A stretch of 64,000 nucleotides of DNA from an uncultured Bdellovibrio sp. (GTDB taxonomy: Bacteria > Bdellovibrionota > Bdellovibrionia > Bdellovibrionales > Bdellovibrionaceae): assembly GCA_966211795.1 (NCBI GenBank), contig CBIHNW010000025.1:3787-67786 (forward strand), read 5' to 3'. Positions within the stretch are counted from its first letter, which is position 1; each line of letters starts with the position of its first letter. Below the pieces are notes generated by a model, which saw only the letters and a list, made by a program, of their open reading frames with translations, ran no database searches and was not told the origin of the DNA. A program made the translations under genes and the position numbers. This document shows positions 4,742 to 46,424 of the stretch, piece by piece.

Positions 4742-5680
4742 ATGCTAAGCGAATTGGCGTCTTTGAAATTTTACGACCTCGAAGTTTTTGTAGAAGTTTC
4801 TCGTGCGAAATCCATTCGCGAGGCCGGCCGCCGTCTCAATAAAACTTCGGGACAGATTTCAAAATCCATTCAGGGTCTCGAGAAAAGATTGTCGCGCAAA
4901 CTGCTCAAGCGCTCGGCCCAAGGCGTGATCTTGACGGAGCAGGGAATTGAACTTTTGGCAATGACCCAAGTTCTTTTCCAAGAGGCCGATAAGATTGAGC
5001 GCTGGGTTGGCGGCAAAAACAAAAATCAAGAGACCAAGGTCTTAGCCATCGCCAGCAATAGCTTTTTGAACAATCACCTGGTGGCGCCCACCAGCTCGAA
5101 ACTGAATTTCGATGCTGAAGGGATCAGCCTTCGCTTTATCGATTTGCCACCGGACCAATTGATCCCGCAGGGACTGCGCGGACTTTTTGAAGTGGCGGTT
5201 CACTATGGCAGCTTCTCGTGGCCGTCCACCTGGGTGAGCAAAGCCCTTGGAAAATCCAGGTGGGTTCTTTGCGCCAGAAACCAGCATCCCTTACCAAAAA
5301 AGCCAAATCTTGAACAAGTCCTTCAGTACCCTTTCGTCATCCCCGCCTATTCCAGCGCCGAAGGCCTGACCCGAGGAAATGACCAATTTCCACTGCCGTA
5401 TTCAAAACGCAAAGTGGGGCACGAAGCGACAACGGCCGATACGGCCATGGCGGTGGTCATGAATTCAGATCAAATGACTTTCATCCCCGAGATCTCCGCC
5501 AAATTTTTCCTGCAGACCGAAGTTTTACGCGAAGTGAAGATTCGCGACTTTCCGGCCAGCGAGAAAATCGAGAAAGAGATTTACCTTTCGGTGAAAGCAG
5601 ATTCGGTTCAACAGTCCGTCTTCATGAAGCTGTTTGAAGAAATGCGCAAAAGGTTGCAAGAAGGCCATCGCTTTCGTTGA
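4742..5680 (+). CDS. LysR-family transcriptional regulator
   Basis: N-terminal wHTH: LKFYDLEVFVEVSRAKSIREAGRRLNKTSGQISKSIQGLEKRL. It is divergent from the adenylation operon. The ATG at 4742 puts the HTH at the usual distance from the N-terminus. The ORF-track start is 4694. Confidence 0.85.
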   Translation: MLSELASLKFYDLEVFVEVSRAKSIREAGRRLNKTSGQISKSIQGLEKRLSRKLLKRSAQGVILTEQGIELLAMTQVLFQEADKIERWVGGKNKNQETKVLAIASNSFLNNHLVAPTSSKLNFDAEGISLRFIDLPPDQLIPQGLRGLFEVAVHYGSFSWPSTWVSKALGKSRWVLCARNQHPLPKKPNLEQVLQYPFVIPAYSSAEGLTRGNDQFPLPYSKRKVGHEATTADTAMAVVMNSDQMTFIPEISAKFFLQTEVLREVKIRDFPASEKIEKEIYLSVKADSVQQSVFMKLFEEMRKRLQEGHRFR

Positions 5681-7814: not shown

Positions 7815-9212
7815 TTGGGACGCAACATTGAAATCACGGGAGAAACCCAGTATTCTGATAGAGATAAGGGGAAGAGTCTGAAGTTACAATTACGCAGCAA
7901 ACACAAAGTTTGGGTTCTCGTAGCCATTTCTACATTGGTCACCTCTTCGCTTTTCACCAACTGTTCAAATGGATTCAAAGTTGAAGACGGAACCGGAGCG
8001 ACAGTCGAGCTCGGATTGGGTTCTACCGACCCCGGCACTCCCACCACCACTCCTCCGGTGGCCCCACCTCTTCCAGATGTGCCTACGCTTCCAAAAAATC
8101 CAAGCCAGCCACCTCCAGCCCCAGCGCCTGAGCCGATCACCATGACCAATCAGCCAGCTTGGATGAAGGGTAAAAGTTTGAATGAGTGGATCGAAATTCC
8201 GAACACCAGCGGCGCTGGTGGCTCAACTTTCAAATCTTTTAGCGGATTGGCTTTGCGTGAAGCGACCAGCGAAATCGTCATCGGTGCTGCCGGCGGGCAC
8301 GGAGATGGCGCCGACAATCGAGTCGTTTCCCTGGTGCTCGCCACGGACCAACCGAAATGGATTCTCCATATTGGCCCCAGTCCCGTTCCGGTGTTCAATG
8401 TGCCTTACTATACAGACGGCACACCTGCGGCCCGGCACACTTATCAAAACACTTATTACATCGAGTCTCTGCACCGACTGTTCCTGTTCGGCGCCAATTA
8501 TGTCCCAGGAAATGCCGTGCAATATCCGAATGTCGATGCCTTCTCGTTCGAGACCAATCAGTGGGATCCGCCCAACACATGGGCGCCGATGCCGGATTAC
8601 AGTTTCGGCGCGGTGAAAGTTCCAGGAACCGATGATGTTTTTTCGTCCAACTTAACCAAATGGTCTGCGGCCGATGCCTTGGCGGCCTATAAAGCCGGAA
8701 ATCCGGGGACAACCAGCGTGTTCTCGACACCGATCAAAGTTCGAACGGACAGTCAGGTGCGATGGCCTCTGGCTTTCGATAAAAAAAGAAATCAGCTTTA
8801 TTCACTGCAATGGGGTGACGGACAAGGATATAGCGGTCCGGCCATCAGCTCTTCGCGCATTGATCTTGCGACCGGCGTGCAAACCAAAGTGAGCATCAAA
8901 CCAAGTGCGGCCTTTGATCAATTCGCGGCGGAACGTCCCGTTTACGCCTCGATGGATTATGATCCAGAAAATGATCGGTTTTTATTTTACAGCGGTCTTG
9001 ATGCAGCCCTCGGCCGAATTTACGTGATCAAGCCGACTTCGCTCAACGAGTATGAAATGAGCATCTTTGCAACCATCGCATCTTCAAAAATGCCACCAGC
9101 CACGCAGGGATCCGGCATGCAATCGAATTTTAAATATGTTCCGGGACTAAAGGGATTTGTTTTATTGGCAACACCTGATGCCAATTTATTCTTTTTAAAG
9201 ACCGCTCAATAA
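7815..9212 (+). CDS. lipoprotein, paralog A (Pro-rich linker plus a probable beta-propeller-like body)
   Basis: Lipobox-like LFTNC and a Pro-rich PPVAPPLPDVPTLPKNPSQPPPAPAPEP linker. By eye about two-thirds identical to the 14813-16162 product. The start is uncertain: TTG at 7815, or CTG at 7878 behind an AAGGGGAAG RBS. Confidence 0.75.
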   Translation: MGRNIEITGETQYSDRDKGKSLKLQLRSKHKVWVLVAISTLVTSSLFTNCSNGFKVEDGTGATVELGLGSTDPGTPTTTPPVAPPLPDVPTLPKNPSQPPPAPAPEPITMTNQPAWMKGKSLNEWIEIPNTSGAGGSTFKSFSGLALREATSEIVIGAAGGHGDGADNRVVSLVLATDQPKWILHIGPSPVPVFNVPYYTDGTPAARHTYQNTYYIESLHRLFLFGANYVPGNAVQYPNVDAFSFETNQWDPPNTWAPMPDYSFGAVKVPGTDDVFSSNLTKWSAADALAAYKAGNPGTTSVFSTPIKVRTDSQVRWPLAFDKKRNQLYSLQWGDGQGYSGPAISSSRIDLATGVQTKVSIKPSAAFDQFAAERPVYASMDYDPENDRFLFYSGLDAALGRIYVIKPTSLNEYEMSIFATIASSKMPPATQGSGMQSNFKYVPGLKGFVLLATPDANLFFLKTAQ

Positions 9213-11403: not shown

Positions 11404-11847
11404 TTGAAGGCGAATCCACTTGCATTTTTCATTCATCCCATTCCGCTCTCAGCTGTCGCCCTGATGGCCATCAACGATCATTGGCTCAAATTTCATTTCC
11501 CGGGATTTCTCACCGGAAAGATCAGCGATTTTTGTGGGGTCTTTTATCTGCCGATTTTCCTCTTGGCCCTTTCTGTTGGCGCCGGTCTTCTTAGGTCGCG
11601 ATCTTTTCAGGAAACTGGTGGCCGGTTGAACTGGAGAAATCTTTGGATCGCCATTTTATGCACAGATTTTCTTTTGCTCTCGGTGAAGCTGAGCCCGCTG
11701 ATCGCAAGTAGTGTGGAACATTTTTTTCAAGAATTTCTGTTTCGCATTCAATTGAATTCAGACCCCACGGATCTCGTGGCGCTGGTGATGAATCCGCTGA
11801 CGATTTTGTACATGCAACGTTTTATTTCGCCATCAAAACGCATTTAG
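11404..11847 (+). CDS. small integral membrane protein
   Basis: TTG start 7 nt after an AAAGGA. About 4 hydrophobic helices. No family recognised. Confidence 0.5.
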   Translation: MKANPLAFFIHPIPLSAVALMAINDHWLKFHFPGFLTGKISDFCGVFYLPIFLLALSVGAGLLRSRSFQETGGRLNWRNLWIAILCTDFLLLSVKLSPLIASSVEHFFQEFLFRIQLNSDPTDLVALVMNPLTILYMQRFISPSKRI

Positions 11848-12249
11848 CACGGCATCAAGCTCAAAAGAGACTTTGCAAACTTCGACACCATCTTCACTGC
11901 AGGTGTAGACATTGAGCTTCGTCTGATCGTGATCGATCAAGGCGTGGCGGCAGGTGCGCATCTTTTCGCCGATCCAACCGGAAAGAACATCCTCGTCGCG
12001 AAAACTGAGCAAAGAGGACGGCAAGCCAAATTCAGATGCATGCCGATTCTGTGGGGAAACGATTTCTTTGTTTTGAATGGTGACCGTATCGTAAGGCAAT
12101 GCCCCAGGGCACGAAGAGGCCACGAGATACACCTCTTGAGTTTTCGCCGCTTGCAATGGATCTTGATCACTCTTCTTTGAAGTCGCGATGGTCACAACCG
12201 AAGTCGCCAGCATGCAAGCAATGGTGAAAAGAACTTTCAGTTTCTGCAT
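11833..12249 (-). CDS. secreted hypothetical protein
   Basis: Start moved to MQKLKVLFTIACMLATSVVTIATS (signal peptide). This ATG overlaps the upstream stop by 1 nt (TGATG at 12247-12251). Confidence 0.55.
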   Translation of the reverse strand: MQKLKVLFTIACMLATSVVTIATSKKSDQDPLQAAKTQEVYLVASSCPGALPYDTVTIQNKEIVSPQNRHASEFGLPSSLLSFRDEDVLSGWIGEKMRTCRHALIDHDQTKLNVYTCSEDGVEVCKVSFELDAVLNAF

Positions 12250-13658: not shown

Positions 13659-14645
13659 ATGAAGATTGAAACAGATAAAAAATTGAGCAAGATTTTGAAT
13701 ATCAAAAATTTAAGCGATTCTTTGTTGCTTGAAAAAACGAACGGCCTGGTCAAAGAAGAACGCGAAGTGCTGACAAATCTTTTGCATCACTTCCGCGAGA
13801 TCGAGCGGCGTCGTCTTTTCTGCGATTATAAATATGAATCACTTCGCGAGATGCTCGTGAAGCATTTTGGATATTCGGATGATGAAGCCTACCGAAGAAT
13901 ATCTGCCATGTGGTTACTTAAAGACGTGCCAGAAGTGGAAGAGAAGATCACAAATGGCGAACTCTCGCTATCACACTTAAGCATGGCTCAGTCTTTCTTT
14001 CGAAAAGAAGCAAAGATCCATAAAGTTGAGATTTCGAAAGAAGATAAGCTTGGTCTTCTGGCAGAGATCAGCGAGCAAACAATCCGAGAAGCGCAGAGAA
14101 TTATGCTCGCCCAGTCTTCAGCTCCGGAGGAACTGCGGCCTGACAAAGTCACGATCATTAGCGAAGCAAAAATTGAATTCCGGTTCACCGCGAATCAATC
14201 CTTGGAATCCAAAATCTCGGAAGTCAAAGGCCTGCTCGCCCACAAGCATCCAAATCTATCGATGGGAGAACTGCTAGAAGTGCTTTGCGAAATATCCATC
14301 GAAGCTTTAAAAAAAGAGAAGACTTCGACATCAAAAACTGAAAAGATCGCGACGCCCAGGAGAAGCTGCGTCAGTGAAACTCAGATCAGCAGTCCTCACA
14401 GCGATGCGACGTCCGTGGTAAAACCAAAATCCCAAGCTCAAATCAACCGCGAAGTCTGGCAAGAAAGCCAGCATCAATGCAGCAACTGCGGATCAAAGCG
14501 CGGACTCGAAATCGATCACAGGCATCCCAAAGCTAAGGGCGGAGAAAACTGCAAAGACAATCTCCGCATCCTCTGCCGAAAATGCAATCAGCGTGCGGCT
14601 ATCAAAGAATACGGGCAACTCAAGATGGATCTCTACCTGAATTAG
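13659..14645 (+). CDS. HNH endonuclease (DUF222-like N-terminal domain plus C-terminal HNH/Zn-finger), copy 1
   Basis: The C-terminus CSNCGSKRGLEIDHRHPKAKGGENCKDNLRILCRKCNQRA contains CxxC...DH...N...CxxC. AAGAGGAG RBS before the ATG at 13659. Close paralog of 36046-37119. Confidence 0.85.
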   Translation: MKIETDKKLSKILNIKNLSDSLLLEKTNGLVKEEREVLTNLLHHFREIERRRLFCDYKYESLREMLVKHFGYSDDEAYRRISAMWLLKDVPEVEEKITNGELSLSHLSMAQSFFRKEAKIHKVEISKEDKLGLLAEISEQTIREAQRIMLAQSSAPEELRPDKVTIISEAKIEFRFTANQSLESKISEVKGLLAHKHPNLSMGELLEVLCEISIEALKKEKTSTSKTEKIATPRRSCVSETQISSPHSDATSVVKPKSQAQINREVWQESQHQCSNCGSKRGLEIDHRHPKAKGGENCKDNLRILCRKCNQRAAIKEYGQLKMDLYLN

Positions 14646-14812: not shown

Positions 14813-16162
14813 TTATTGCGCTGTCTTGATGAAAAAGAGATTCGAGTCCCTGGTTGGCAGAAGGACGAAGCCTTTCAGGGCTGGCACGTATTTAAAGTTT
14901 GAGTTGAGGCCGGCGCCCATCGTTGGTGGTGGCTTCACTGATGAAGCGGTGGTTTGCAGCAAGCTCATGTCCCACTCGGTGCTGGTTGAAGAGGGCTTGA
15001 TCGCGTACACTCTTCCCGCCGCGTCGCCAAGGCCGCTGTAAAAAAGGAAGCGATCATTCACGATGTCATAGTCCATCGCCGCGTAAACAGGAACCTCGGC
15101 GACAAACATACTGTAAGCGCTGCTGGGCTTGATCGTGATATCGGTTTGCACGCCCGAGGCGAGTTCGATCTTTGAGGCGAAGACGTTGGGAGCGTTGTAA
15201 CCCTGACCATCCCCATACTGCAAAGTGAAGATTTGATTGCGGGCCTTATCATAAGCCATCGGGAACCGGATCGCGGCATTGGTTCGCGTCTGAATCGGAT
15301 GAGACCAAACGCTGGTGGAAGATGGAGTACCGGCTTGATACATGGCCTTGGCCTGCGCCGCCGACCACTTGCTCAAGCCATTCGAATAAACATCATCGCT
15401 TCCCGGAATCTTGACGGAGCCGAACTCGCCAAGCACAGGCATCGGTGCCCAGGTGTCTGGTGGATCCCACTGATTGGTCTTAAACGAAAAGGCATCAACG
15501 GAAGTGAAAGAATAAGCATTTCCATAGGTGTAGCGAGCCCCGAATAAAAACAGCCGATCCAACGATTCGATATAGTACGTGTTTTGATACGAATGCCGGG
15601 CCGATGGAGTTCCATCTTGGTAATGTGAAACATTGAGATCCGCAAAAGGGCTCGGCGCTATGTGCAAGACCCACTTGGGCTGATCAGCGGCGAGCACCAA
15701 AGACACAACCCGATTGTCAGCCGAGTCCCCGTGTCCCCCGGCCGCACCGATCACGATTTCACTGGTCGCTTCTCGCATCGCCAGGCCGCTAAAAGCCTGA
15801 ATAGCGGCCCCACCCGCGCCGCCCGTGTTCGGGATTTCGATCCACTCGTTCAAACTTTTACCGGACATCCAAGCCGGTTGATTGGTCATCACAATCGGCT
15901 GGACCGGCGCCGGAGCTGGTTGGCTGGGAGTCGAGGGATTGGTGGTGGTGGTCGGAGCCGGTGAAATCGGCGAAGTCGAAGTCGAATCGCCCGAACCCGC
16001 GTCAGGAGTGCTCGATGCCAAGCTTTCAGTCGAAGTTTGCAGTTCGTTCGTGATAAAGCCCTGGGTGCAGTTATTGAAAGCCAGGATGCAAATGAGAAAT
16101 GAACCTGTCAGTACGAGCATTCTTCGCAAGCGTCGCTGGCGAACTGAATTCAGTTTGAACAT
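14813..16162 (-). CDS. lipoprotein, paralog B of 7815-9212
   Basis: Lipobox LAFNNC and a Pro/Thr-rich linker. Long colinear identity with paralog A, for example MTNQPAWM.GKSLNEWIEIPNT.GAGG and SEIVIGAAGGHGD.ADNRVVSLVLA.DQPKW. Confidence 0.75.
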   Translation of the reverse strand: MFKLNSVRQRRLRRMLVLTGSFLICILAFNNCTQGFITNELQTSTESLASSTPDAGSGDSTSTSPISPAPTTTTNPSTPSQPAPAPVQPIVMTNQPAWMSGKSLNEWIEIPNTGGAGGAAIQAFSGLAMREATSEIVIGAAGGHGDSADNRVVSLVLAADQPKWVLHIAPSPFADLNVSHYQDGTPSARHSYQNTYYIESLDRLFLFGARYTYGNAYSFTSVDAFSFKTNQWDPPDTWAPMPVLGEFGSVKIPGSDDVYSNGLSKWSAAQAKAMYQAGTPSSTSVWSHPIQTRTNAAIRFPMAYDKARNQIFTLQYGDGQGYNAPNVFASKIELASGVQTDITIKPSSAYSMFVAEVPVYAAMDYDIVNDRFLFYSGLGDAAGRVYAIKPSSTSTEWDMSLLQTTASSVKPPPTMGAGLNSNFKYVPALKGFVLLPTRDSNLFFIKTAQ

Positions 16163-17575: not shown

Positions 17576-17827
17576 GCTCTTGATTGTCGCGAGCCTTCAG
17601 CGAAAGCGCAAAATCTTTTCGCTGATTTCAAGAGACTCGACCAGCACAGTTTCCCGCTGATTTCGAGGGGCGGTCGGCGAAAGACTGGACAGTTGCTAAA
17701 AATATTGCACCCCTATCTCCCCGCGACCGAAACAAATTTGTTGGATTTACCTGTCAAAATAAAAACAGCATCTTTCAAAATACTTTTCGTTTACTTTGCG
17801 CCGACTTTTCAAAACGGGGTTTTTCAC

Positions 17828-18637
17828 ATGAAAAATATTTTGCTCACTGCCATTTTTGCTTTTCCAGTTTTCTTCACCCTCTCGGCATCCGCCGTGCTGC
17901 TTCCGGAAGAGCTTGTGCCCAATCAAAATTCATTCCTAGACCTGCCGGCCATTTATGCGGCGGCCGCCCAAAAGGGACAGAGCAATCTGGGAAAGCAATG
18001 CAAATTCGATTCAGCCGCCGAATACGAAGCTTACAAGAAAACCGTTTCCGATCCCGATCTTTTGATGTCCGACGAAGCCTTCAAAGCGAACATCCAACAA
18101 GTCGGACTGAGTTCGGGCGATCCGTCGGCGCTGGCCTATGAAACAAAAGATCTCTGCTTTATGAATTTCAAAGAGTACACGGCCCTTCGCTTGTACACGG
18201 GTTCTTTGTACATGATGCTGAACAACGCACTTCGAAACCACAACAAAGCCCAGGTTCAGCAGTACCGCATCGTCACCAAATTTCTGATGTCAGCCCTGAA
18301 CAAGTTGAAAAACTTTGTCGGCTACGTGAAACGCGGATCCACCTTGCCGGCGGATCAATTGGCGCAGCACCAAGTCGGCACCCAGATCGTGTACACGGGC
18401 TTCACCAGCACCTCGGTTGCTTCCGGGTTTGGCGGCAATGTTCGGTACGTGATTTATTCGCGCAGTTGCAAATACATCGCACCCTTCTCTTATTTTCAGC
18501 AAGAGGAAGAAGTTTTGTGCCTGCCTGGAATTCGTTTTCAAATTCGCTACCGCAATCTGCAAAATGGCGTGACCGAGCTTTTGATGGAAGAAACCGGGCA
18601 AGAGTTTGATGTCGATCAAGCCCTGCAGGCAATGTAA
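17828..18637 (+). CDS. secreted mono-ADP-ribosyltransferase toxin (R-S-E class, ADPrib_exo_Tox-like)
   Basis: Signal peptide MKNILLTAIFAFPVFFTLSASA. YTALRLYTGSLYMMLNNALR is a Y..Y...N..LR NAD-site helix. The catalytic triad motifs are VKRG (Arg), GFTSTS (STS) and QQEEEVLCLPG (ExE followed by VL.LP). Confidence 0.8.
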   Translation: MKNILLTAIFAFPVFFTLSASAVLLPEELVPNQNSFLDLPAIYAAAAQKGQSNLGKQCKFDSAAEYEAYKKTVSDPDLLMSDEAFKANIQQVGLSSGDPSALAYETKDLCFMNFKEYTALRLYTGSLYMMLNNALRNHNKAQVQQYRIVTKFLMSALNKLKNFVGYVKRGSTLPADQLAQHQVGTQIVYTGFTSTSVASGFGGNVRYVIYSRSCKYIAPFSYFQQEEEVLCLPGIRFQIRYRNLQNGVTELLMEETGQEFDVDQALQAM

Positions 18638-18645
18638 AATAAAGG

Positions 18646-19653
18646 ATGATCATGAACGCGATCGTTGCGAGCTGCCTGATATTTTTGGCCCTGAACCAAG
18701 CGCAGGCGAAGACCTATGAGATGCCTGAGCCACAAAGCGCGACGCTGTCATCGGTGAGCTACCGCTTCAATGAGATCCGCACGGTCCCCGGAGATGAAAT
18801 TCACTTTTCAGTTCCGCAAAATCTTCGCGGGCAAAAGCTCTCTTTTGTCATCCTAGGTCACCGCCAAGATCCGACCACCCACAAGGGCGGCACCCCCGGA
18901 CAAAAGCTAGATCAGATCCCAGGCCTTTCTGCCGTGCTGGTGCATTCCACCAATCTCAGCATCACGAATTCGCCAGATGCCTGGAGATACTGGGCCGGAA
19001 TGGCGTCTGGAAATTTCGGCGCCAAATTTGCTGAACCCCGCTTTGATCCCGAGATCGAAAATCTTTACGAGTGGAACAGTATTGGCTCTCGCGGTGTGCA
19101 AAGCAATGAGCTGTCTTTAACGCCGCTCATGATTGATCAAGTCACCGTCCGCAACGTGGGTCAGGACGAAGTGTTGGTGAGCCAGCTGACGCTGAAATTC
19201 ATTCCGCAGGACATTACGAGCCAGCAGGTTTTGGTGTATTCGCCAGGCACCCAGTTCAGCTCCGAATTCGGCGGCAAAGCCCATCTCGGTGGTGGACAGT
19301 CTTTTCAAGGAACCTTCCCGCAGGCGCTGGTGCTGAACGGGATTCAAGAAATTCCGTTGCAAGAGGGCCTGATCATCAAAGGGATCGAGGCCGCCATCGG
19401 CGACTCTCACCCCGATCAGATTTCAAATTCGGACGGCGGCTGGGGAACGCAGGGCTGGGCCAAATTTTCGATTGGGATTGGTCCAAACAGCTCCAACATT
19501 CAGTGGCTGACCGAGCGCGAGAATGTGCCACCCGAGGGATTGGCCTTGGCATTTCCCCTGACCGAAGCCCGCACCCAGGGAACCAAACTGTATTTGAAAT
19601 CCGAAAGCGACACCACCTACGTGATGGGCGTGCGGATTTCGTATCGAAAATAA
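18646..19653 (+). CDS. secreted hypothetical protein, probably co-transcribed with the ART gene
   Basis: It starts 8 nt after the ART stop. Signal peptide MIMNAIVASCLIFLALNQAQA. No recognisable family. Confidence 0.65.
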   Translation: MIMNAIVASCLIFLALNQAQAKTYEMPEPQSATLSSVSYRFNEIRTVPGDEIHFSVPQNLRGQKLSFVILGHRQDPTTHKGGTPGQKLDQIPGLSAVLVHSTNLSITNSPDAWRYWAGMASGNFGAKFAEPRFDPEIENLYEWNSIGSRGVQSNELSLTPLMIDQVTVRNVGQDEVLVSQLTLKFIPQDITSQQVLVYSPGTQFSSEFGGKAHLGGGQSFQGTFPQALVLNGIQEIPLQEGLIIKGIEAAIGDSHPDQISNSDGGWGTQGWAKFSIGIGPNSSNIQWLTERENVPPEGLALAFPLTEARTQGTKLYLKSESDTTYVMGVRISYRK

Positions 19654-19718: not shown

Positions 19719-20759
19719 ATGCGATCACGTGGGGCTTCACTCTTCCAAGCTGTCTTCATTTTTTTCCTGTTCTTAGCCGATGCCGGCGCTCAAGAAATCA
19801 AGGCCGACAAACCGAGCGATGAAACCGAGGGCCGCGCCTGGGCTTTCTACATCGAAAACGATTCGCACAACATCGGTGGCCCAGGATCAGATCAAGCGTA
19901 CTCGAACGGATTTAAATTCTCTTACATCTTTGCCGAAAACCGAGCGCCCCGATGGGCGGAGAAATCCACGCGCGCTTTGGATTTCTTAGATTCAAATCTC
20001 AATCACGCAAAAATGAATTTTGGCCTTTCCGTTGGTCAGCAGATTTACACGCCCAACGACACCGCGACCTCGGATCTGATCACCGATGATCGTCCTTATG
20101 CCGGTTGGCTTTATTTGGGATTGGCCGCGAGCTTCAAAGAAGAAAATGTTGGCCATTTTTTCGAATTGGATCTGGGCGTCGTCGGCCCCAGTGCCCTGGG
20201 CGAACAGGTGCAAAATAATTTTCATCGCCTGATTCAAGAAAGTCCGGCCGAAGGATGGAAAAATGGCTTGCATGATGAGCCCACCGTCGAATTGCTGTAT
20301 CAAAAAAGATTCAAGGCCTGGCAGAAATCGCAGTTCGACTTTGTCCCGTATTACGGTGGTGCTTTTGGAAACGTCAAAGTCGGCGTGCATGTCGGCGCCT
20401 TGGTCCGTGCCGGCATCAATTTACCGGATGACTTTGGCCCCAGCCGTCCTTCAGCCAGCGATGGAGACAGCTTCGTCGCGCCCAATCCCTCTCCCGAAAG
20501 CCGACAGAAAAGTTATTACGCCTTTGCCGGCAGTCGGGGAAACGCGGTTCTTCACAATATTTTTCTGGATGGAAACACCTGGCAACCAAGTCCGCACGTC
20601 AAAAAGTACCCGCTCACTTTCGAAACCGAATTCGGTGTTGGCTTCCAACTTCTTCCTTACTCGGTCGTCTGGAGATTCGTCACGCGCTCGCCCGAATTTG
20701 AAGAGCGAAGCCGCGTGAACAGCTTCGCTTCTTTGAATGTCATGTACTTTTTCAAATAA
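19719..20759 (+). CDS. LpxR-family (DUF2219) outer-membrane lipid A deacylase-like protein
   Basis: Signal peptide, then WAFYIENDSHNIGGPGSDQAYSNGFKFSY and DDRPYAGWLYLG, which are typical of the LpxR/DUF2219 barrel. It ends in an aromatic residue run (NVMYFFK). Confidence 0.7.
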   Translation: MRSRGASLFQAVFIFFLFLADAGAQEIKADKPSDETEGRAWAFYIENDSHNIGGPGSDQAYSNGFKFSYIFAENRAPRWAEKSTRALDFLDSNLNHAKMNFGLSVGQQIYTPNDTATSDLITDDRPYAGWLYLGLAASFKEENVGHFFELDLGVVGPSALGEQVQNNFHRLIQESPAEGWKNGLHDEPTVELLYQKRFKAWQKSQFDFVPYYGGAFGNVKVGVHVGALVRAGINLPDDFGPSRPSASDGDSFVAPNPSPESRQKSYYAFAGSRGNAVLHNIFLDGNTWQPSPHVKKYPLTFETEFGVGFQLLPYSVVWRFVTRSPEFEERSRVNSFASLNVMYFFK

Positions 20760-36045: not shown

Positions 36046-37119
36046 ATGAAGACTGAGATGAACAAAGCGATGAACATTAAAAATTTGAACGACACTCTTC
36101 TCGTGCAAAAAACTGAAGTCTTGGTGAAAGAAGAGCGTGAAGTGCTGACGAAGCTTTTGCATTATTTCCGGGAGATTGAACGACGCCGCCTTTATTGCGA
36201 TTACAAGTACAAATCACTTCGCGAAATGCTGGTGAAACATTTTGGATATTCGGATCATGAGGCCTACCGAAGAATCTCTGCCATGTGGCTTTTAATAGAT
36301 GTTCCAGAGATGGAAGAAAAAATCACGAATGGTGCATTATCTTTAACTCACCTAAGCCTTGCACAGTCTTTCTTTCGAAATGAAGCAAAGATTCATCATG
36401 TTTCAATATCAAAAGAAGATAAGCTTGAGCTTCTCGCTGAGATTAGCGAGCAAACAATCCGCGAGGCGCAGAGAATTATGCTCTCGCAGTCTTCGGCTCC
36501 AGAGGAACTGCGGCCTGACAAGATGAGCGTCATCAGTGAGCAGAAAATAGAAATCCGGTTCGCCGCGAATAAATCATTGGAAGAAAAAATCTCGGAAGTG
36601 AAAGGCTTGCTAGCCCACAAGCATCCGAATCTATCATTGGGAGAATTGCTCGAGGTGCTTTGCGATCTTTCGATCAAAACCTTGAAGAAAGCAAAGACCG
36701 AGACCTTGTCGAAACAAAAGTCCGCGGCGCAAAGGAAAGGCCGCGTCACCAAAGTGCGAATGGATGATTCTCAAAAGCTTGAATCGCAGTCGAGCGTGAA
36801 CACAGATATTCATGATTCACGATCAGCGAAGCCAGACTTTCAAGCGCCACAAACAGCGACCACACCAAATATGGAGGACTCCGCCGAAAAGCTGAAACCC
36901 AAATCCCAAGCGCAAATCAGCCGCGAAGTTTGGCAGGAAAGCCAATACCAGTGCAGCAACTGCGGATCAAAGCGCGCGCTCGAGATCGATCACCTCAAGC
37001 CCAAAGCCAAAGGCGGCCTCAACACGAAAGAAAATCTTTGCGTCCTTTGCCGTGCCTGCAATCAGCGGGCGGCCATCAAAGAATTTGGGCAGCTCAAGAT
37101 GGATCTGTATTTGAATTAG
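36046..37119 (+). CDS. HNH endonuclease (DUF222-like N-domain plus HNH), copy 2
   Basis: By eye about 80% identical to copy 1 outside a variable linker. C-terminus CSNCGSKRALEIDHLKPKAKGGLNTKENLCVLCRACNQRA. Confidence 0.85.
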   Translation: MKTEMNKAMNIKNLNDTLLVQKTEVLVKEEREVLTKLLHYFREIERRRLYCDYKYKSLREMLVKHFGYSDHEAYRRISAMWLLIDVPEMEEKITNGALSLTHLSLAQSFFRNEAKIHHVSISKEDKLELLAEISEQTIREAQRIMLSQSSAPEELRPDKMSVISEQKIEIRFAANKSLEEKISEVKGLLAHKHPNLSLGELLEVLCDLSIKTLKKAKTETLSKQKSAAQRKGRVTKVRMDDSQKLESQSSVNTDIHDSRSAKPDFQAPQTATTPNMEDSAEKLKPKSQAQISREVWQESQYQCSNCGSKRALEIDHLKPKAKGGLNTKENLCVLCRACNQRAAIKEFGQLKMDLYLN

Positions 37120-40077: not shown

Positions 40078-41898
40078 CTATTTCTTCTCGAGCCTCGTCC
40101 AATACTCGCGTTGGCCGGCGGCTTGCGCTTTAAAAAGATCAAGACCGCTGACGTAGGGCCGGCCATGCCGCAAAGCCCATTCGCGAGCCCGACTGTCTTC
40201 GCGGTAATTCAGATCCACCAAAATTTCAAAATTCACTTCGGGTGGAAAGTCATCTTCTGGACCGGCGGCCCACACCAACACCTGCACCGAAGCCGGCAAG
40301 CTTTGATCCGCGGATCGCGGCCGTCGCGTGCGGACTGAGACCGAAATGGCTTGCGGTAAAATTTCTTGAATGGCGCCCAGCGTGCCGCCACCTCCCCAGA
40401 TCAGAGCCGTCGCCCCCACGACGGGAACTTGGATGAGCCGACAGGCTTTTTCGATTTGCGCCCGCAGCCCCTTAAGATCCGTGTTATGGCCCGAGACCGT
40501 TTTGCTTGCGATCGACAAGGTGTTCACCGCCTGCAATCGCTGCGCTTCTGCCGACAACTGATCGCAGGCCTGAAATGCATCGCCTTTAAAAGGCGAGGTC
40601 ACGGCGGCGGCCGTCAATCCGAGTGAGATCAAAAATGGCAAGGCTTCTTTAAATTCAGTTTCTTCTAACAAAATCGGCCACACGGGTTGGTTTTTCGCAG
40701 CGAAGAATTCAGATTGCTCGATCATGGTGCGCGAATGATGGACCGGATTTCCGATCAAGGCCGCAAATGCCTGCGTTTTTTCCTGAGTGCTGAGCCATTC
40801 AAACAGCGTCGGCTGATCGGCGGCCGAGCCATCACTTTCCCGCCAGAAATTGATTTTCTGCCGTCCCTTCAAGTAAAGGCGAAGCCACATCCAGCGTCCG
40901 GCGACTCCCGCCGGCGATCGCGGCAAAACGCTTCGCTGCGATGGATTTTCGCTCTGCCACCTTAAAATTTCTTGGGCTTCCGCCAAGCTCTCGATCACGG
41001 GCGCGGCCTTGAGATGCTGTCCGGTAGACCCCGCTTTTTCCAGTCTTAACAAAAAGGCCGTCAGATTTTCTCCCGACAGTCTTTCATGACAAGACAAAAC
41101 CGAGATCTCGTTTGTTGGACAAGGACCCAGCTCTAGCGCCCAGTCGCTTTCCTGCGTTTGCGATAAATACCGAAGGTGATCCACGGACTTCTTCGGCAAG
41201 CGAAAGCTGAGCAGACGTTTCTCGTGTGGAACCTTTCGCCACAAAGTCGCATCCAAATCCAAGAGATCATCGCGAATTTCGTACAGAGCACAGCCAAATC
41301 GCTGGGCGCAAGTTTCGAATTTTCGCAGCTGCCACTCTTGCAAAGTGAGAATGCCCTGGGCCGCAAGCTCGATTGGTGATGCGGACCAAAGTTTTTCCTC
41401 GATCGGATGCGGCTGATCCAAGCCTTCTGGCAGCCAGTAGGCCTCGTCGGCCAGGGCCGAATAGATTTTCTGCCGCAGTTCGAATCGTTCCTTAAATTCT
41501 TGCAGCGGACTGACGCCCGCGTTCAATCGGGGTCGGTCCAAGAAAATGCGGCCGTGCTCGTCACTTTTGCGACGAAGCCAGATGACCTTGAGATCCTTGG
41601 ACTGGGCGCGGGACTGAGCCAGTTGAAATCCGCCCCCGACCGAAAGAACGTAGCTTGGATATGTCGCTTCGATCTCTCGAAAAACCTGTTGCTCGATTTC
41701 CCGAAACCTCGTCTCGCCGATCTCTGGGAAGAGCTTAATGATCGGGGTCTGCAAGCGCTTTTCAATCTCTTGATCGAGATCGAGAAAAGCAGTGGAGCTT
41801 GATTGCAAATAGGTTTTCAGTCTTAGCAGGAACTGGGATTTCCCCACGCCACGGTGGCCGATCACGATCCATTTCATCGACTCATTCTCCGACAGCAA
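40078..41898 (-). CDS. trifunctional shikimate kinase / type I 3-dehydroquinate dehydratase-like / shikimate dehydrogenase fusion
   Basis: N-terminus: P-loop GHRGVGKS plus LDLDQEIEKR (AroK). Middle: YEIRDD, LSFR, SCHE and LKAAP resemble the AroD ExRxD / His / Lys signatures. C-terminus: GNPVHHSRT, NTDLKG and WGGGGTLGA (AroE). Alternative start is the ATG at 41877. Confidence 0.8.
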   Translation of the reverse strand: MLSENESMKWIVIGHRGVGKSQFLLRLKTYLQSSSTAFLDLDQEIEKRLQTPIIKLFPEIGETRFREIEQQVFREIEATYPSYVLSVGGGFQLAQSRAQSKDLKVIWLRRKSDEHGRIFLDRPRLNAGVSPLQEFKERFELRQKIYSALADEAYWLPEGLDQPHPIEEKLWSASPIELAAQGILTLQEWQLRKFETCAQRFGCALYEIRDDLLDLDATLWRKVPHEKRLLSFRLPKKSVDHLRYLSQTQESDWALELGPCPTNEISVLSCHERLSGENLTAFLLRLEKAGSTGQHLKAAPVIESLAEAQEILRWQSENPSQRSVLPRSPAGVAGRWMWLRLYLKGRQKINFWRESDGSAADQPTLFEWLSTQEKTQAFAALIGNPVHHSRTMIEQSEFFAAKNQPVWPILLEETEFKEALPFLISLGLTAAAVTSPFKGDAFQACDQLSAEAQRLQAVNTLSIASKTVSGHNTDLKGLRAQIEKACRLIQVPVVGATALIWGGGGTLGAIQEILPQAISVSVRTRRPRSADQSLPASVQVLVWAAGPEDDFPPEVNFEILVDLNYREDSRAREWALRHGRPYVSGLDLFKAQAAGQREYWTRLEKK

Positions 41899-42970
41899 GT
41901 CTTTGGCAAAACTGAACCAGCTCGTCGATCTTCACATCATGAATGGGACAAAGTCCGGGACGCTGAATGAAAATAAATCGCAGGGCCCCTTGCTTCGACA
42001 TTTTTTTATCTTTCAAAAGATAATCGCGAACGTCGATTTTTTCCCGCTGAATGATTTGGACCAAATCCGCCCTCGACGGCAGAAGCTGCATCACCGGAGC
42101 CGACTCGAGCTTTTCCGCCTGAGTCTTCTTGAGCACGCCTTGATCTTTCGATAGCTCAAGCGCGGCGCGAATGCCGAAAGCCACCGCCCGCCCATGCGCG
42201 AGCCCCTGGGCGGCTTCCCATACGTGACCCAAGGTGTGACCCAAATTCAGCAAATGTCGGATCCCTTTTTTCTCGAGCGGGTCGCGTTTGACGATGCGGT
42301 ATTTGCCTTCAATCAATTGCGGCAGAAACTTCCAGGCGGTTTCATTGTTGAAGGATTTGATTTTGGAAAACTGCTCCCACAATTTCCCGCCGGTCAAAAG
42401 CGCCATTTTGATGGCCTCGCCAAAAGCTTCCTCGGCCCTTGCTGCCGGTTGCGCCAGCAAGATGGGCTTCACCAGTAATATTTTCCGCGCGGGATAAAAA
42501 GTGCCGATCTGATTTTTAAAGCCGCCGACATTCAAAGCGGTTTTCCCACCATGAGCGGAATCCATCGCCGAAAGCCAAGTGGTCGGTACGTGAACCAAAG
42601 GAAGACCGCGCTTCAGGATGCTAGCGACAAAGCCCGCAAAATCCCCGATGCTACCGCCTCCCAGACCCACAATCTGCACGCCCGACGCATTCATTTGGCT
42701 GTGAAGTTCAAGAATTTTTTCAAGGCGTGCGGGAAATTCCCGGAGATCTTTCAAGCTCTCGCCGCTTTCAAAGCCGATGCGAAAGGGAAAAGTCTCGATC
42801 CACTTTTTCACCTCACGCAATGAAGGCTCACCCGACTTTTCAAAATAAGAGTCATAAATTAAAAGACAAGGCCCACCAAAACTTTGCAGGCTTGGCCACT
42901 TGGTGAGAAATCGGATTTCACTCGCAGTCTTTTCTCTCGCAGTCGATTTCAAGCGGCATCCCCCGAGCAT
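41882..42970 (-). CDS. aroB: 3-dehydroquinate synthase
   Basis: GGGSIGDFAGFVA, VPTTWLSAMDSAHGGKTALN, LNLGHTLGH. An alternative TTG start at 42952 overlaps the upstream stop. Confidence 0.9.
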   Translation of the reverse strand: MLGGCRLKSTAREKTASEIRFLTKWPSLQSFGGPCLLIYDSYFEKSGEPSLREVKKWIETFPFRIGFESGESLKDLREFPARLEKILELHSQMNASGVQIVGLGGGSIGDFAGFVASILKRGLPLVHVPTTWLSAMDSAHGGKTALNVGGFKNQIGTFYPARKILLVKPILLAQPAARAEEAFGEAIKMALLTGGKLWEQFSKIKSFNNETAWKFLPQLIEGKYRIVKRDPLEKKGIRHLLNLGHTLGHVWEAAQGLAHGRAVAFGIRAALELSKDQGVLKKTQAEKLESAPVMQLLPSRADLVQIIQREKIDVRDYLLKDKKMSKQGALRFIFIQRPGLCPIHDVKIDELVQFCQRLAVGE

Positions 42971-44124
42971 CGAGGCTTTTCCGCGAAAAACTCGTTCAAA
43001 CGCAGGGATAATTTTTGGAGATCAGAATCGGACAACGTGATGGACATGCGCAGATGCAAAGGCATCCCGAAGGCTTCACCCGGCATGCAGGCGATCCCTT
43101 TCTTTTGCAAAAGGTCTTCCGCCACCTGCACCGAAGTGCGCGAGGCATCTTTCAAACGAATCCAGAGATAAAAAGCCCCTTGCGAAGTGTAGACTTGGAT
43201 GTGCGGAATCTGTTGCAGCTCGCGCGAGATCCATTGATGGCGATCCTTCATTTTCATTTTTAAATCTCGCACGAATTGATCACCAGACGCCAGCGCCTTC
43301 TCGGTCGCTTTTTGAATAAAGTCCGGAGTGCAGGTGAGACTTTGACTGAAAAACTGATTCAGTTTTCGAATGCATTCCGGATGCGCCGCAATCCATCCCA
43401 TGCGCCATCCCGTCATCGCATAGCTTTTTGAGACGCCGTGGACGATGATCAATCGCGCTTTTAATTCTTCATCCGCCACGTCCAGAAGACTGGGAGCGCG
43501 CGAAGCTTCATCAAAATTCAATTGATTGTAGATATCATCACAGATCACCATCACGTCGGGATGATCTTTCAAAACCTCTGCCAATGCCTGCAGTTCTGTT
43601 TTCGAATACACAGCGCCCGATGGATTGTTGGGCGAGTTCAGAATCAGCACGCGAGATTTTTCATTCAATCCGCGCTTTAAAACATCAGGGCTCAGTTTGT
43701 ATTCAGAATCCGGCGGCAAGATCCGAACGCTGGCACGCGCCATTTCTGCCAGCTGCTGATAGCTCACCCAATAGGGAGCCGGAATCAGGACCTCGTCACC
43801 CGCATCACACAGAATCTGCATCAAGGCATAAAGTCCGAATTTCGATCCGGGCGTGATCAGAATCTGTTCGGGGGTGTAGGTCGCCTGATAAACTTTTTGA
43901 AACCAGTTTGCCACCGCTTGCCGAGTGCTAAGAAGACCTTGCGCTGATCCGTACCGAGAGGTCTCTGTCATCACCTGATGGGCCAATGCTTGCTTAATCT
44001 CAAGATCGACATCACCATCAGGCTCGCCCACCGACGCCAAAATGATGTCTTCACCTTTCGCTTTGAGCTCTTGCGCTTTCAGCGTGGTGGTCATCGTTGG
44101 CGAGGCCGTTAAGTTTTGTGCCAT
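42949..44124 (-). CDS. class I/II pyridoxal-phosphate aminotransferase (aspartate/aromatic type)
   Basis: LNSPNNPSG and the SKSYAMTGWRMGW PLP-Lys motif. Alternative starts are GTG at 44139 (GTGA overlap with the aroC stop) or ATG at 44175. Confidence 0.85.
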   Translation of the reverse strand: MAQNLTASPTMTTTLKAQELKAKGEDIILASVGEPDGDVDLEIKQALAHQVMTETSRYGSAQGLLSTRQAVANWFQKVYQATYTPEQILITPGSKFGLYALMQILCDAGDEVLIPAPYWVSYQQLAEMARASVRILPPDSEYKLSPDVLKRGLNEKSRVLILNSPNNPSGAVYSKTELQALAEVLKDHPDVMVICDDIYNQLNFDEASRAPSLLDVADEELKARLIIVHGVSKSYAMTGWRMGWIAAHPECIRKLNQFFSQSLTCTPDFIQKATEKALASGDQFVRDLKMKMKDRHQWISRELQQIPHIQVYTSQGAFYLWIRLKDASRTSVQVAEDLLQKKGIACMPGEAFGMPLHLRMSITLSDSDLQKLSLRLNEFFAEKPRCSGDAA

Positions 44125-44135
44125 CTTCGAGAACT

Positions 44136-45191
44136 TCACACGCCCTCCGCGGCGATTCGATCTTGGCGCGCCCACAGGACGTGATCCGCCATCACCATCC
44201 AGGCCATTGATTCAAGAACCGGAATGGCACGAATGACGATGCAGGGGTCATGTCGACCCTTTTTCGCCGCATCCAAAACGGTGGATGTGGGTTTAAAAAA
44301 CACGCGAAATAAAATGGGCTCGCCCGAGCTGATGCCGCCGCGGATGCCGCCGTAATGTCGCTGGTCTTGCTGGCGATGAAACTGCGAACCTTCAGCTTCA
44401 GTCACGTCGCGACCATCACCCAATTCGACCCCGGCCGTCGCGCCGACACTCATAAATGCCGAGGCCATGTCCGCTTTTAATTTGTGAAATACGGGTTGGC
44501 CTAAGCCCGGGAACGGATTGGAAATGAAAACTTCGACTTCGCCGCCATAGCTGCGACCTTCCGTTTTTGCTTTCAATAAAAGGTCTTCGATCAAAATATT
44601 TTTTTCGGCATTCGGCATGCGCGAAGAAAACTGATCCACCCGCAATTGGCCGCTGCCGAGATCAGATTCGATTTTCAAGATCTCTTGATCATTCAAGGCG
44701 TGCGAAGCGATGCGGGTCGCAAACGCAAAAACCTGCATCTGCGGGCAAAGCTCTTTCAAAATCATCTGTGCAACTGCGCCGCCGATCACGCGCGACAATG
44801 TTTCCCGTCCCGACGACCGACCACCGCCGCGATGATCGGAATGCCCAAACTTGAGCCGCCACAGATCATCGGCATGCCCCGGACGGGGTTGAAAGGCGAT
44901 TTCTTTGTAATCTTCCGAACGGGTGTCTTTGTTGCGAACGATGATCGCAATTGGTGTCCCGAGCGTTTTTCCCTCGAAAACCCCGCTTAATACTTCGGGT
45001 CGGTCTTCTTCATTTCGAGGCGAGACGATCGAATTCTGACCAGGTCGTCGGCGCGCCAACTCTTTTTCCAAAAGGTCCATATCAAAGGGCACACCGGCCG
45101 GGCAGCCTTCGATGATGGCACCTAAGGCCACCCCGTGGCTTTCGCCAAAACTGGTGATTTGAAATCGGCTGCCGAAAGTATTTGCTGACAC
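44136..45191 (-). CDS. aroC: chorismate synthase
   Basis: TSFGESHG, GGGRSSGRETLSRV, RHDPCIV. Confidence 0.9.
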   Translation of the reverse strand: MSANTFGSRFQITSFGESHGVALGAIIEGCPAGVPFDMDLLEKELARRRPGQNSIVSPRNEEDRPEVLSGVFEGKTLGTPIAIIVRNKDTRSEDYKEIAFQPRPGHADDLWRLKFGHSDHRGGGRSSGRETLSRVIGGAVAQMILKELCPQMQVFAFATRIASHALNDQEILKIESDLGSGQLRVDQFSSRMPNAEKNILIEDLLLKAKTEGRSYGGEVEVFISNPFPGLGQPVFHKLKADMASAFMSVGATAGVELGDGRDVTEAEGSQFHRQQDQRHYGGIRGGISSGEPILFRVFFKPTSTVLDAAKKGRHDPCIVIRAIPVLESMAWMVMADHVLWARQDRIAAEGV

Positions 45192-45221
45192 TTGATGCCT
45201 CTCTCTTGTTGAACGACCGCT

Positions 45222-46424
45222 CTAGGCCGCCACCTTCTGCTGATCGATGATCTGCCAAAACTCGGGAAAACTTTTGTGCACGACTTCGGGATGCAGAATC
45301 TGGATCGATGAGGTCTGTGACGCCACCAATGCCGCGGCAAACGCCAACCGATGATCATGATCCGTATCATAGGAAAATGAGCTGGTCGGCATCACCAATC
45401 GCGCCGGTGGATGAACTTCCATTCCGTCCGGCAGGATCTTCGTTTGCACCCCGAGATGGCCAAGCAGTTCCGCCGTCTTCTGGATGCGATTGGATTCTTT
45501 AAACACCAAGTGCGGAGCCCCATCCAATCGGGACGGACCCTTCGCGAAAGCGCACAAGGTTGCAAGCACCGGAAAAAGATCCGGGCACTCGTTCAAATTC
45601 CAATGCACACCTTGCAATGATACCAGACCCGGAGTTTTTTGAAAGATGCGAACATGATCCGCTCCCGTCTCGACGCCGGCTCCCATTTTTTCGAGGATTT
45701 GCACAAACACCTTATCGGGTTGCAAGCTCTGAAAGGGGAAACTGCGAAACGTGGCCTCGCCATTCAAAGCGGCATAGGCCGCGATCGCGAAGCTTGAGCT
45801 TAAATCGCTTTCAATTTGGTACTGCCGAATCTGCACCTTCGAGTGAGCTGGGATCAAAACACCCTTCTCAAAATTTTCCAGGCGCATGCCAAAGTCCTTC
45901 ACGACCTGGGTCGACATCTGCCAATACCCTTCAGAAACGCCGGTCTGATCCCATTCGATCTTCAACGGAAAGTCCAGGTCCCAGGCATTGAGCAAAATGC
46001 CCGAGACAAACTGGCTTGATTTTTCGCGATTCACGCGAAGGCTCAGTTTTGGTTTTTGCCACCCGCGGCTGTGAATGATCAACCGATCGGTTTGAATTTC
46101 GATTCGCACACCGAGCTGCTTTAAAATCTCGACCAGATCTTCTTGCGGCCGACTGAGAAGTCGGGGCGTGCCTTTCAAAATATGCACGCCGGGGATTCTG
46201 GACGCTCGCAAAGCCAAGAACCGCAACACGGTGCCGGCACTGCCGCAGTCGTAAATTGACTCGCGCTGCAGACGCGCGAAGGCTTCTTTCATCTTCAAGA
46301 CGTCATCACAGGTCGACTCGCCCTTCAGGACGACCGAAGGCGCGTAAGAGCCGCAGATCAACGCTCGGTTGAAGTGCGACTTGGAAGCCGGGATGACGCC
46401 GTCATAGCGAAAAAGGCTTGGCAT
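45222..46424 (-). CDS. aroA: 3-phosphoshikimate 1-carboxyvinyltransferase (EPSP synthase)
   Basis: PASKSHFNRALI, DCGSAGTVLRFL, KESNRI. The start overlaps the upstream stop by 1 nt. Confidence 0.9.
   Translation of the reverse strand: MPSLFRYDGVIPASKSHFNRALICGSYAPSVVLKGESTCDDVLKMKEAFARLQRESIYDCGSAGTVLRFLALRASRIPGVHILKGTPRLLSRPQEDLVEILKQLGVRIEIQTDRLIIHSRGWQKPKLSLRVNREKSSQFVSGILLNAWDLDFPLKIEWDQTGVSEGYWQMSTQVVKDFGMRLENFEKGVLIPAHSKVQIRQYQIESDLSSSFAIAAYAALNGEATFRSFPFQSLQPDKVFVQILEKMGAGVETGADHVRIFQKTPGLVSLQGVHWNLNECPDLFPVLATLCAFAKGPSRLDGAPHLVFKESNRIQKTAELLGHLGVQTKILPDGMEVHPPARLVMPTSSFSYDTDHDHRLAFAAALVASQTSSIQILHPEVVHKSFPEFWQIIDQQKVAA

Follow-up and report, generated by a model that had tools for sequence, protein, structure and literature searches.

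An exported ADP-ribosyltransferase and its secreted partner protein in a Bdellovibrionales-like genome: a candidate two-part predation toxin

How Bdellovibrio-like predators disable their prey, and which of their Sec-exported proteins reach targets in the prey cytoplasm, is to our knowledge largely unknown, and it is this question that is raised by a pair of genes in sequence assembled from an uncultured Bdellovibrio sp. The window analysed here is a stretch of 64,000 nucleotides (assembly GCA_966211795.1, contig CBIHNW010000025.1, positions 3,787 to 67,786 of the forward strand). The first gene of the pair had been singled out from its letters as encoding a compact, Sec-secreted ADP-ribosyltransferase (ART) toxin; the second, immediately behind it, encodes a further secreted protein that will be referred to as the partner. 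Does the enzyme act alone, and on whose proteins would it act? A review of 2025 describes the experimental evidence on the secreted enzymes and secretion systems of predators as still limited (PMC12428579), and a literature search found no description of an ADP-ribosylating predation effector in Bdellovibrio-like predators. The ART locus is a concrete and testable candidate for such an effector, and its two products may together make up a new toxin of two parts that is used on prey.

An exported R-S-E ADP-ribosyltransferase

The signature named in the original prediction, the helix YTGSLYMMLNNALR followed by VKRG, GFTSTS and QQEEEVLCLPG, is present in the order and at the positions claimed (Table 1), and the two Pfam profiles by which it was to be checked both score above their curated cut-offs, PF01129 as the best Pfam model (E 7.3e-13, 48.8 bits against a cut-off of 22.3) and PF03496 as well (E 2.7e-8, 33.8 bits against 23.4). 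Pfam finds no second domain in the protein beyond the ART. Within the helix Y123, N132 and L135 are invariant and R136 nearly so in the alignment of ART relatives (A1); the helix pairs with TNEGYTALNPALR of the toxin Tre1 in the sequence alignment and falls within a modelled helix that spans residues 114-136. The catalytic residues are retained over 44 non-redundant relatives, R169 in 42 of them, S194 in 43 and both E226 and E228 in all 44, and dN/dS against an 81%-identical homologue is 0.10. Such values lie well outside what chance would give. A longer open reading frame (ORF) starting from TTG 17693 is not supported, as every homologue begins at the MKN methionine.

The best solved relative of the protein by sequence is Tre1 (6DRE_B/6DRH_B, E 1.9e-16, over residues 124-255), and the fold leads to the same place. 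An AlphaFold2 model built with 18 homologues has a mean predicted local distance difference test score (pLDDT) of 87.2 and a predicted template modelling score (pTM) of 0.81, with disorder confined to the leader, and a Foldseek search with this model places Tre1 (6dre_B) on top with an E value of 1.3e-13, a template modelling (TM) score of 0.81 on the target and 31% identity. Next come XopAI, Vis, HopU1, ExoS, C3, ART2.2, Plx2A and a Listeria ART-ARH toxin, and all of the top 50 PDB fold matches are ARTs. The ART fold that had been predicted is thus present; the iota, VIP2 and SpvB toxins that had been held up as the characterised reference give way to the antibacterial toxin Tre1, which is the closest characterised relative in both sequence and fold. 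Matches in PHROG are solely to ART domains that lie inside phage virion proteins.

By sequence and predicted fold, then, the protein is a member of the R-S-E clade of mono-ADP-ribosyltransferases, and taken alone the enzyme adds one more member to a known class. ExE is an arginine-type motif (PMC11606950), in agreement with what had been said of it beforehand, and arginine-type specificity is predicted for this enzyme because the motif is present in its active site (PMC11606950; PMC8120803). A departure from the common active site was seen in a Bacteriovoracaceae metagenome-assembled genome (MAG), where the catalytic Arg169 is replaced by Ser in two tandem ART paralogues (L019, 2303-3091 and 3262-3861) that retain STS and EEE; these may be inactive or of altered chemistry.

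The N-terminus of the enzyme, MKNILLTAIFAFPVFFTLSASA followed by V at the predicted cleavage site, was found by inspection to consist of a basic n-region, a hydrophobic core of 16 residues and an A-S-A cleavage motif, and the same inspection of the leader revealed no twin arginine and no lipobox cysteine; in the AlphaFold model pLDDT is below 50 across residues 1-35. The relatives in Bdellovibrionota have the same MK-hydrophobic-AxA leader though the sequence of the leader diverges, and a Sec-type leader is assigned on inspection and because this type of leader recurs in relatives that share little leader sequence. The Sec leader that was originally predicted therefore stands, whilst the size given for the mature protein, about 245 amino acids, becomes about 247 with the cleavage site found by inspection.

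Exactly four cysteines are found in the protein, C58, C110, C214 and C231. The last two flank the ExE motif, with C231 three residues past the catalytic E228, and they covary strictly, as 22 of the 44 relatives have Cys at both positions, 22 have Gly and Phe, and none has a mixture. C58 and C110 are both present in 18 of the 18 members of a compact clade with signal peptides and in none of the remaining relatives. Four such cysteines are the pattern expected of two disulfides in an exported protein, and of these the probable C214-C231 bond would brace the ADP-ribosylating toxin turn-turn (ARTT) loop. Their conservation and the strict covariation of C214 and C231 fit an oxidising compartment; that C214-C231 is a redox switch is speculation.

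The architecture of the relatives differs between lineages. Within Bdellovibrionota the ART domain occurs in proteins of 200-470 amino acids and is nearly always preceded by a Sec or lipoprotein leader, whereas Actinomycetota, Colwellia and a single very large Bacteriovoracaceae protein have it at the C-terminal tip of proteins of about 550-1600 amino acids (the large-protein cases from outside Bdellovibrionota, in which the ART domain is mostly C-terminal, include L007, L008, L016 and L020). The latter is the layout of polymorphic toxins, and would fit a role of the domain in conflict or as a toxin and a different solution to delivery in the predators. Lipoprotein-like leaders, with a Cys after the hydrophobic core, were seen on ARTs from Bacteriovoracaceae and Silvanigrellales (L012, L013, L014 and L015; the leader of L014 includes AALAC).

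An exported enzyme of this kind could also remain outside the prey cytoplasm altogether, staying in the envelope or in the prey periplasm, using NAD+ that leaks from the damaged prey and modifying proteins of the predator or of the envelope, possibly the partner itself, as an in-prey signal. Such an ecto-enzyme would be in keeping with a best Pfam model that is the ecto-ART family PF01129, with a signal peptide together with conserved disulfide-type cysteines, with the lack of any translocation device recognisable by Pfam, and with arginines that are invariant or nearly so in the LGHRQDP and WRYW motifs of the partner. It sits badly with nearest characterised relatives that are toxins and with the large polymorphic-toxin-like proteins that carry the same domain at their tip beyond Bdellovibrionota; furthermore there is no direct evidence for any substrate, and we consider this explanation improbable.

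A conserved secreted partner

It had been predicted that the enzyme has only a Sec signal and no module for type III secretion (T3SS), type VI secretion (T6SS) or contact-dependent inhibition. Such modules are indeed absent, yet the implication that this is a lone exoenzyme does not hold, as it is adjoined by a conserved gene for a secreted protein. The stop codon of the ART gene and the start of the partner gene are separated by 9-15 nt, with a ribosome-binding site AAAGGA at 18641-18646, and the layout of the two genes is that of a two-gene operon. The partner has an export leader of its own, which ends in FLALNQAQA before a K, and it has no match in Pfam, NCBIfam, PHROGs or PADLOC, nor does its profile find anything among the sequences of the PDB.

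The AlphaFold model of the partner (pLDDT 93.6) is all-beta with two beta-sandwich, or jelly-roll, domains. Foldseek searches of PDB and BFVD return only generic matches to two jelly-rolls, with TM scores of at most 0.25-0.29, and these include PNGase F, PHM, HA70, domains of Vip3, capsids, phage receptor-binding proteins and carbohydrate-binding modules, all with a TM score below 0.3; homology to PNGase F was considered and is not claimed, the matches being generic and below that value. The sequence is characterised by the motifs LGHRQDP, WRYWxGxASGxxGAKFAE, EIENLYEW, GGGQ, GDSHPDxIxNSDGGWGTQGW and ENVPPEG, and its strongly conserved polar residues are H72, D89, E130, E136, D253, H255, D257, N261, D263 and E297. 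The family falls into 69 clusters when grouped at 90% identity, and a profile search gave 240 representatives at the 50% level; all of the homologues that come with names are from Bdellovibrionota, and dN/dS is 0.095. Some homologues end in a PPC pre-peptidase tail, and as such tails are typical of secreted proteins they point to true secretion.

Genes for the partner adjoin genes for R-S-E ARTs in the window and in L025/26, L027/28, L029, L030/L037, L032, L034 and L036, which amounts to about seven independent contexts with unrelated flanking genes and both gene orders; in some pairs the stop and start codons overlap or are tightly spaced. An R-S-E ART is found within 5 kb in 9 of the 11 partner loci that have enough flanking sequence, and in a tenth (L039) the neighbour is a protein of 1436 amino acids with DUF3626, a domain of the Salmonella ART SopF. 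A scan of metagenomes yielded only 4 loci. A linkage that is so frequent, and so varied in context, is hard to ascribe to chance, which argues that the ART does not work in isolation. A third component of the module was looked for by comparing all partner loci with each other and was rejected, since only the ART and the partner recur.

Three further observations were made on these loci. In L038 the 746-amino-acid neighbour of a partner with a PPC tail has no match in Pfam or the PDB. In L036 (4405-10913) the partner lies within five genes on the same strand that have no assigned function (199, 386, 180, 513 and 367 amino acids), with the ART 3.5 kb further on, and this run of genes may be a larger system in that lineage. 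The syntenic loci L004 (2081-2986) and L029 (3075-5011) have an upstream gene, the ART and a downstream YchJ-like gene in common, and in L004 the gap between the ART and the next gene is 88 bp.

The same linkage bears on the possibility that the ART is a stand-alone exoenzyme of the C3 type, with the partner an independent secreted predatory protein, for instance one that binds or modifies glycans, which merely shares its operon. The enzyme consists of one compact domain and has a signal peptide of its own, ARTs of its clade do exist without the partner, the partner family with its 240 representatives exceeds the close ART clade in size, and the partner finds its best structural analogues, weak as they are, in enzymes of two domains such as PNGase F and PHM. 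It would nevertheless require the repeated chance co-location of two rare genes, which is implausible given the 9 loci out of 11 in unrelated contexts and both orders, and given that the partner also occurs with a SopF-like ART neighbour and in fusion to a PARP domain; this explanation seems rather unlikely to us.

The fusions are informative in themselves. In one protein (P0209) a PARP catalytic domain, above the Pfam threshold and with WHGT and GHGSVYLAENSSKS motifs, forms the head and the partner domain is C-terminal to it. The partner domain is likewise C-terminal to HipA-like kinase heads, which lack signal peptides, and is also fused to a head of about 300 amino acids that belongs to no recognised family and has a signal peptide, whilst a calpain protease and a WWE domain form heads on the C-terminal part of the partner domain (the set of fusions comprises P0209, P0174/P0185/P0219/P0237, P0204, P0227 and P0130/P0139/P0147/P0151/P0154/P0159). 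The N-terminal heads of one class of fusions, class A, contain no ART recognisable by hhalign against A1 or by a profile search of the PDB, and gave one weak match to Tox-ART-HYE1 (E 0.005). Two giant proteins of 5193 and 6027 amino acids were also seen to have a partner-like domain near the C-terminus. The partner tracks three branches of the ART superfamily together with several other toxin heads, and its fusions to PARP, HipA-like, calpain and WWE heads are built as one would expect if it were a module for targeting or delivery. We regard the partner as a previously undescribed family, for which there is no Pfam model and which would be an accessory module recurring with toxin-like enzymes.

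When the pairs are compared, the partner is better conserved than the ART in 7 of 8 and equally conserved in the remaining one (L036), with identities for the partner and the ART of 65 and 49%, 59 and 47%, 46 and 35%, and 46 and 29%. This, together with the fusion to unrelated enzymatic heads, is the behaviour of a targeting or binding component and is unlike that of a fast-evolving immunity protein. It is of consequence as Tre1-family toxins are encoded in operons with an immunity protein (PMC8120803), and the present pair could be another case of toxin and immunity, in which the partner would inhibit the ART in the periplasm, or would undo the modification enzymatically, and would protect the producer or its siblings in the way that Tri1 does for Tre1. 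The tight adjacency and co-transcription of the two genes, the export compartment that their products share, the conserved acidic and His residues of the partner, which could form a catalytic cleft, and its association with three different ART branches would all be accommodated. In addition to its conservation, what tells against immunity is that fusion to PARP-like, HipA-like kinase and calpain heads would be unusual for an immunity protein, that intact ARTs occur without the partner both in a syntenic locus (L004) and in P0005, and that the partner has no similarity to ARH proteins or macrodomains. Moreover, the periplasm is not expected to contain the NAD+ that is required for self-intoxication. 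We think that an immunity function is unlikely, although in our ranking of the alternatives from most to least likely it comes first, followed by the unrelated co-secreted enzyme, the ecto-ART signal and a eukaryotic target.

The last of these, in which the enzyme would be directed at grazing protists or a host instead of at bacterial prey, is suggested by structural relatives such as XopAI, HopU1, ExoS and C3, which are directed at eukaryotes, and by the eukaryote-associated flavour of the WWE, PARP and calpain heads on partner-like domains. As the best match in both sequence and structure is the antibacterial Tre1, and the taxonomic range is concentrated in Bdellovibrionota of the predatory type, we hold a eukaryotic target to be very improbable.

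A reading of the pair and its genomic setting

The reading that we favour, and to which we would give an even chance of being right, is that of an exported pair in which the partner does the targeting and the ART ADP-ribosylates arginines of prey proteins. Both proteins would be exported by Sec and leave the predator, the partner would act as a binding or targeting, "B-like", component, and the enzyme would use the NAD+ of the prey to modify arginines of prey proteins and so help to disable the prey. It is built on the family and fold of the ART, its catalytic residues, export signal and cysteine covariation, the layout of the operon, and the linkage and fusions of the partner; from these we infer that the enzyme is active and in physical complex with the partner, what it acts on and how it gets into the prey.

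A number of points weigh against it. The crossing of the outer membrane of the predator and of the inner membrane of the prey by a Sec-exported protein is left without an explanation. As nothing closely related in structure to the partner was found, a binding role is suggested only by analogy to the beta-sandwich receptor-binding domains of other toxins, and the conserved polar residues of the partner could just as well belong to an active site or bind a metal. In the same clade there are also ARTs that have no partner nearby, as in P0005, and of the syntenic loci L004 and L029, in which the ARTs are 71% identical and intact, only L029 has the partner gene, which implies that the partner is accessory and not obligatory, or that it is encoded elsewhere. 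Finally, predation by this uncultured lineage is something that we infer from its phylogeny alone.

A broader version may be put forward tentatively, as a possibility that we find doubtful. The locus would then be a two-component exported toxin of predatory Bdellovibrionota that needs no T3SS, type IV secretion system or T6SS, and the partner domain a general module for targeting or delivery that brings interchangeable warheads onto or into bacterial prey, the R-S-E ARTs being subunits apart from it whilst PARP-like ARTs, HipA-like kinases and calpain-like proteases are fused to it. Owing to the disulfide by the catalytic Glu, the ART would stay latent for as long as it is outside the reducing cytoplasm of the prey. 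A role of the partner family in delivery or targeting would add to the known routes by which bacterial toxins reach bacterial targets, and a role as inhibitor or eraser would make it a new fold that controls ADP-ribosylation. What appears to be new here is the Sec-only export in predators, the covarying disulfide at the active site and, above all, the conserved partner family.

With regard to the organism, an identical ART protein was found on contigs from three samples. Its relatives in GTDB genomes are chiefly from Bdellovibrio sp., Pseudobdellovibrionaceae, Bacteriovoracaceae and Silvanigrellales MAGs; one pattern-based scan of the GTDB species representatives revealed no cultured carrier, nearly all of the matches in Bdellovibrionota being MAGs. 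The named relatives of the AroA encoded in the window are from Bdellovibrionales, Bdellovibrio or Pseudobdellovibrionaceae MAGs with identities of 68% or less, the one exception being labelled "Proteobacteria bacterium". Together these sequences suggest a Bdellovibrionales-like organism, with support at the level of the order; of the guess first made about the organism the affiliation is thus borne out by the relatives of the ART, the partner and AroA.

Table 1. Coordinates of the ART and partner genes, their motifs and adjoining features in the window
Feature	Position	Strand	Basis or remark
Divergent intergenic region, benE (-) / ART (+)	17576..17827	.	Gene layout; presumed site of the promoter of the ART-partner operon
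ART gene, 269 aa + stop	17828..18637	+	ATG 17828, TAA 18635-18637; exported R-S-ExE mono-ADP-ribosyltransferase; ORF and translation
Sec-type signal peptide, residues 1-22	17828..17893	+	Cleavage predicted between ASA and V; inspection, recurrence in relatives
Second Cys pair, C58 + C110, in N-terminal helical extension	17999..18157	+	Conserved in compact signal-peptide clade
Conserved helix, residues 122-136	18191..18235	+	Hallmark of PF03496/PF01129
Catalytic Arg, R169 in VKRG	18332..18334	+	Invariant in A1; aligned with Arg of Tre1 YRG
S194-T195-S196 in GFTSTS	18407..18415	+	Invariant in A1; aligned with Tre1 STS; modelled strand 193-196
Predicted disulfide C214-C231 flanking ExE	18467..18520	+	Covariation in 44 relatives
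E226-E227-E228 in QQEEEVLCLPG (ExE motif, ARTT loop, catalytic Glu)	18503..18511	+	Aligned with Tre1 E-A-E
Partner gene, secreted two-beta-sandwich protein	18646..19653	+	Likely true start ATG 18652, giving 333 aa
LpxR lipid A 3'-O-deacylase	19719-20759	+	PF09982, E 1e-86; directly downstream of partner

The window is otherwise ordinary chromosome, with an operon for aromatic amino acids, benE, lpxR and dehydrogenases. An origin from a horizontal-transfer island, a plasmid or a phage was rejected, as the G+C content is not anomalous, a plasmid search gave only distant Ralstonia matches and the surroundings are those of a chromosome. Neither the neighbours within 10 kb nor the further window genes that were sampled include T3SS or T6SS families, and there is no ARH or macrodomain gene within 10 kb of the ART. 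A consensus scan of the intergenic region upstream of the ART revealed no convincing sigma-70 site on the + strand, and the counts from a promoter and terminator scan were no higher than in shuffled sequence. LpxR was considered as part of the module and is probably not, since the 81%-homologous locus L025 lacks it.

Several other features of the window and of related loci may be recorded. In L025 a gene for an IS200-type Y1 transposase (4920-5495) lies some 500 bp upstream of the ART, and synteny with the window on the upstream side is lost at that point. Two small convergent and overlapping genes in the window, 11464-11847 (+) and 11833-12249 (-), have no Pfam match, and in L025 and L027 both have homologues that are no more than a few kb away from the ART-partner module. 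The products of 7815-9212 (+) and 14813-16162 (-), which have weak Kelch_3 matches and of which the second has a leader and a linker rich in Thr, Pro and Ser, may be secreted beta-propeller paralogues. HNH endonuclease genes of 328 and 357 amino acids are found at 13659-14645 (+) and 36046-37119 (+), the first in a stretch of lower G+C content (0.43-0.45). The aromatic amino-acid cluster (40078-48723, -) encodes a shikimate kinase/dehydrogenase fusion, 5-enolpyruvylshikimate 3-phosphate synthase and a chorismate mutase-prephenate dehydrogenase, and indicates that the lineage keeps biosynthetic capacity.

Comparison with known systems

The closest system is that of Tre1 from Serratia proteamaculans (PDB 6DRE/6DRH), a T6SS-delivered antibacterial toxin to which the ART of the window is related in sequence and in fold, with R, STS and ExE all aligned, and which is an R-S-E enzyme that modifies Arg174 of FtsZ as well as other bacterial proteins (PMC8120803). 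The ART of the window has no PAAR, Rhs, VgrG or T6SS context and has a Sec leader instead; it adds an N-terminal helical extension with a pair of Cys and a predicted disulfide at the ARTT loop, and its neighbour is a secreted beta-sandwich protein and not a cytoplasmic immunity protein of the ARH type. From these comparisons the enzyme would work most like Tre1, yet it is not a T6SS effector of the Tre1 type.

The C3-like exoenzymes (C3 of C. botulinum and of C. limosum, and EDIN of S. aureus) resemble the ART of the window in being single-domain proteins of about 25 kDa that have a signal peptide, no delivery domain and the same fold. The C3 enzymes have QxE and modify Asn of Rho GTPases, whereas the ART of the window has ExE, as do all 44 of its relatives, and is 15-18% identical to them; nor are the C3 enzymes known to have a conserved partner gene.

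The likeness to the binary toxins (iota Ia/Ib, C2I/C2II, VIP2/VIP1 and CDT) is one of form only, in that adjacent genes encode two exported products, an arginine-type ExE enzyme and a separate component. Their enzymes have a duplicated ART fold where that of the window has a single ART domain in 269 amino acids, and their second component is a protective antigen (PA)-like pore former of about 80-100 kDa where the partner is a double jelly-roll of 35 kDa; there is no Pfam match to Binary_toxB or PA14 in the partner and 36 of its homologues. The pair falls outside the iota, C2 and VIP class of binary toxins.

With the vertebrate ecto-ARTs (ART1 and ART2.2, PF01129) the enzyme shares its best Pfam model and R-S-ExE, and ART2.2 is among its fold matches; with its signal peptide and four conserved Cys it may also resemble them in being extracytoplasmic and disulfide-bearing. 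It differs from them in being bacterial and operon-encoded, in lacking a glycosylphosphatidylinositol anchor and in an identity of about 20%. The single-chain AB toxins with an ART (exotoxin A, cholix and diphtheria toxin) are comparable to the P0209 type of fusion in combining an ART head with one or more beta-sandwich domains, whilst the P0209-type fusions have no recognisable translocation domain or detectable homology to these toxins and are arranged with the head at the N-terminus and the sandwich at the C-terminus.

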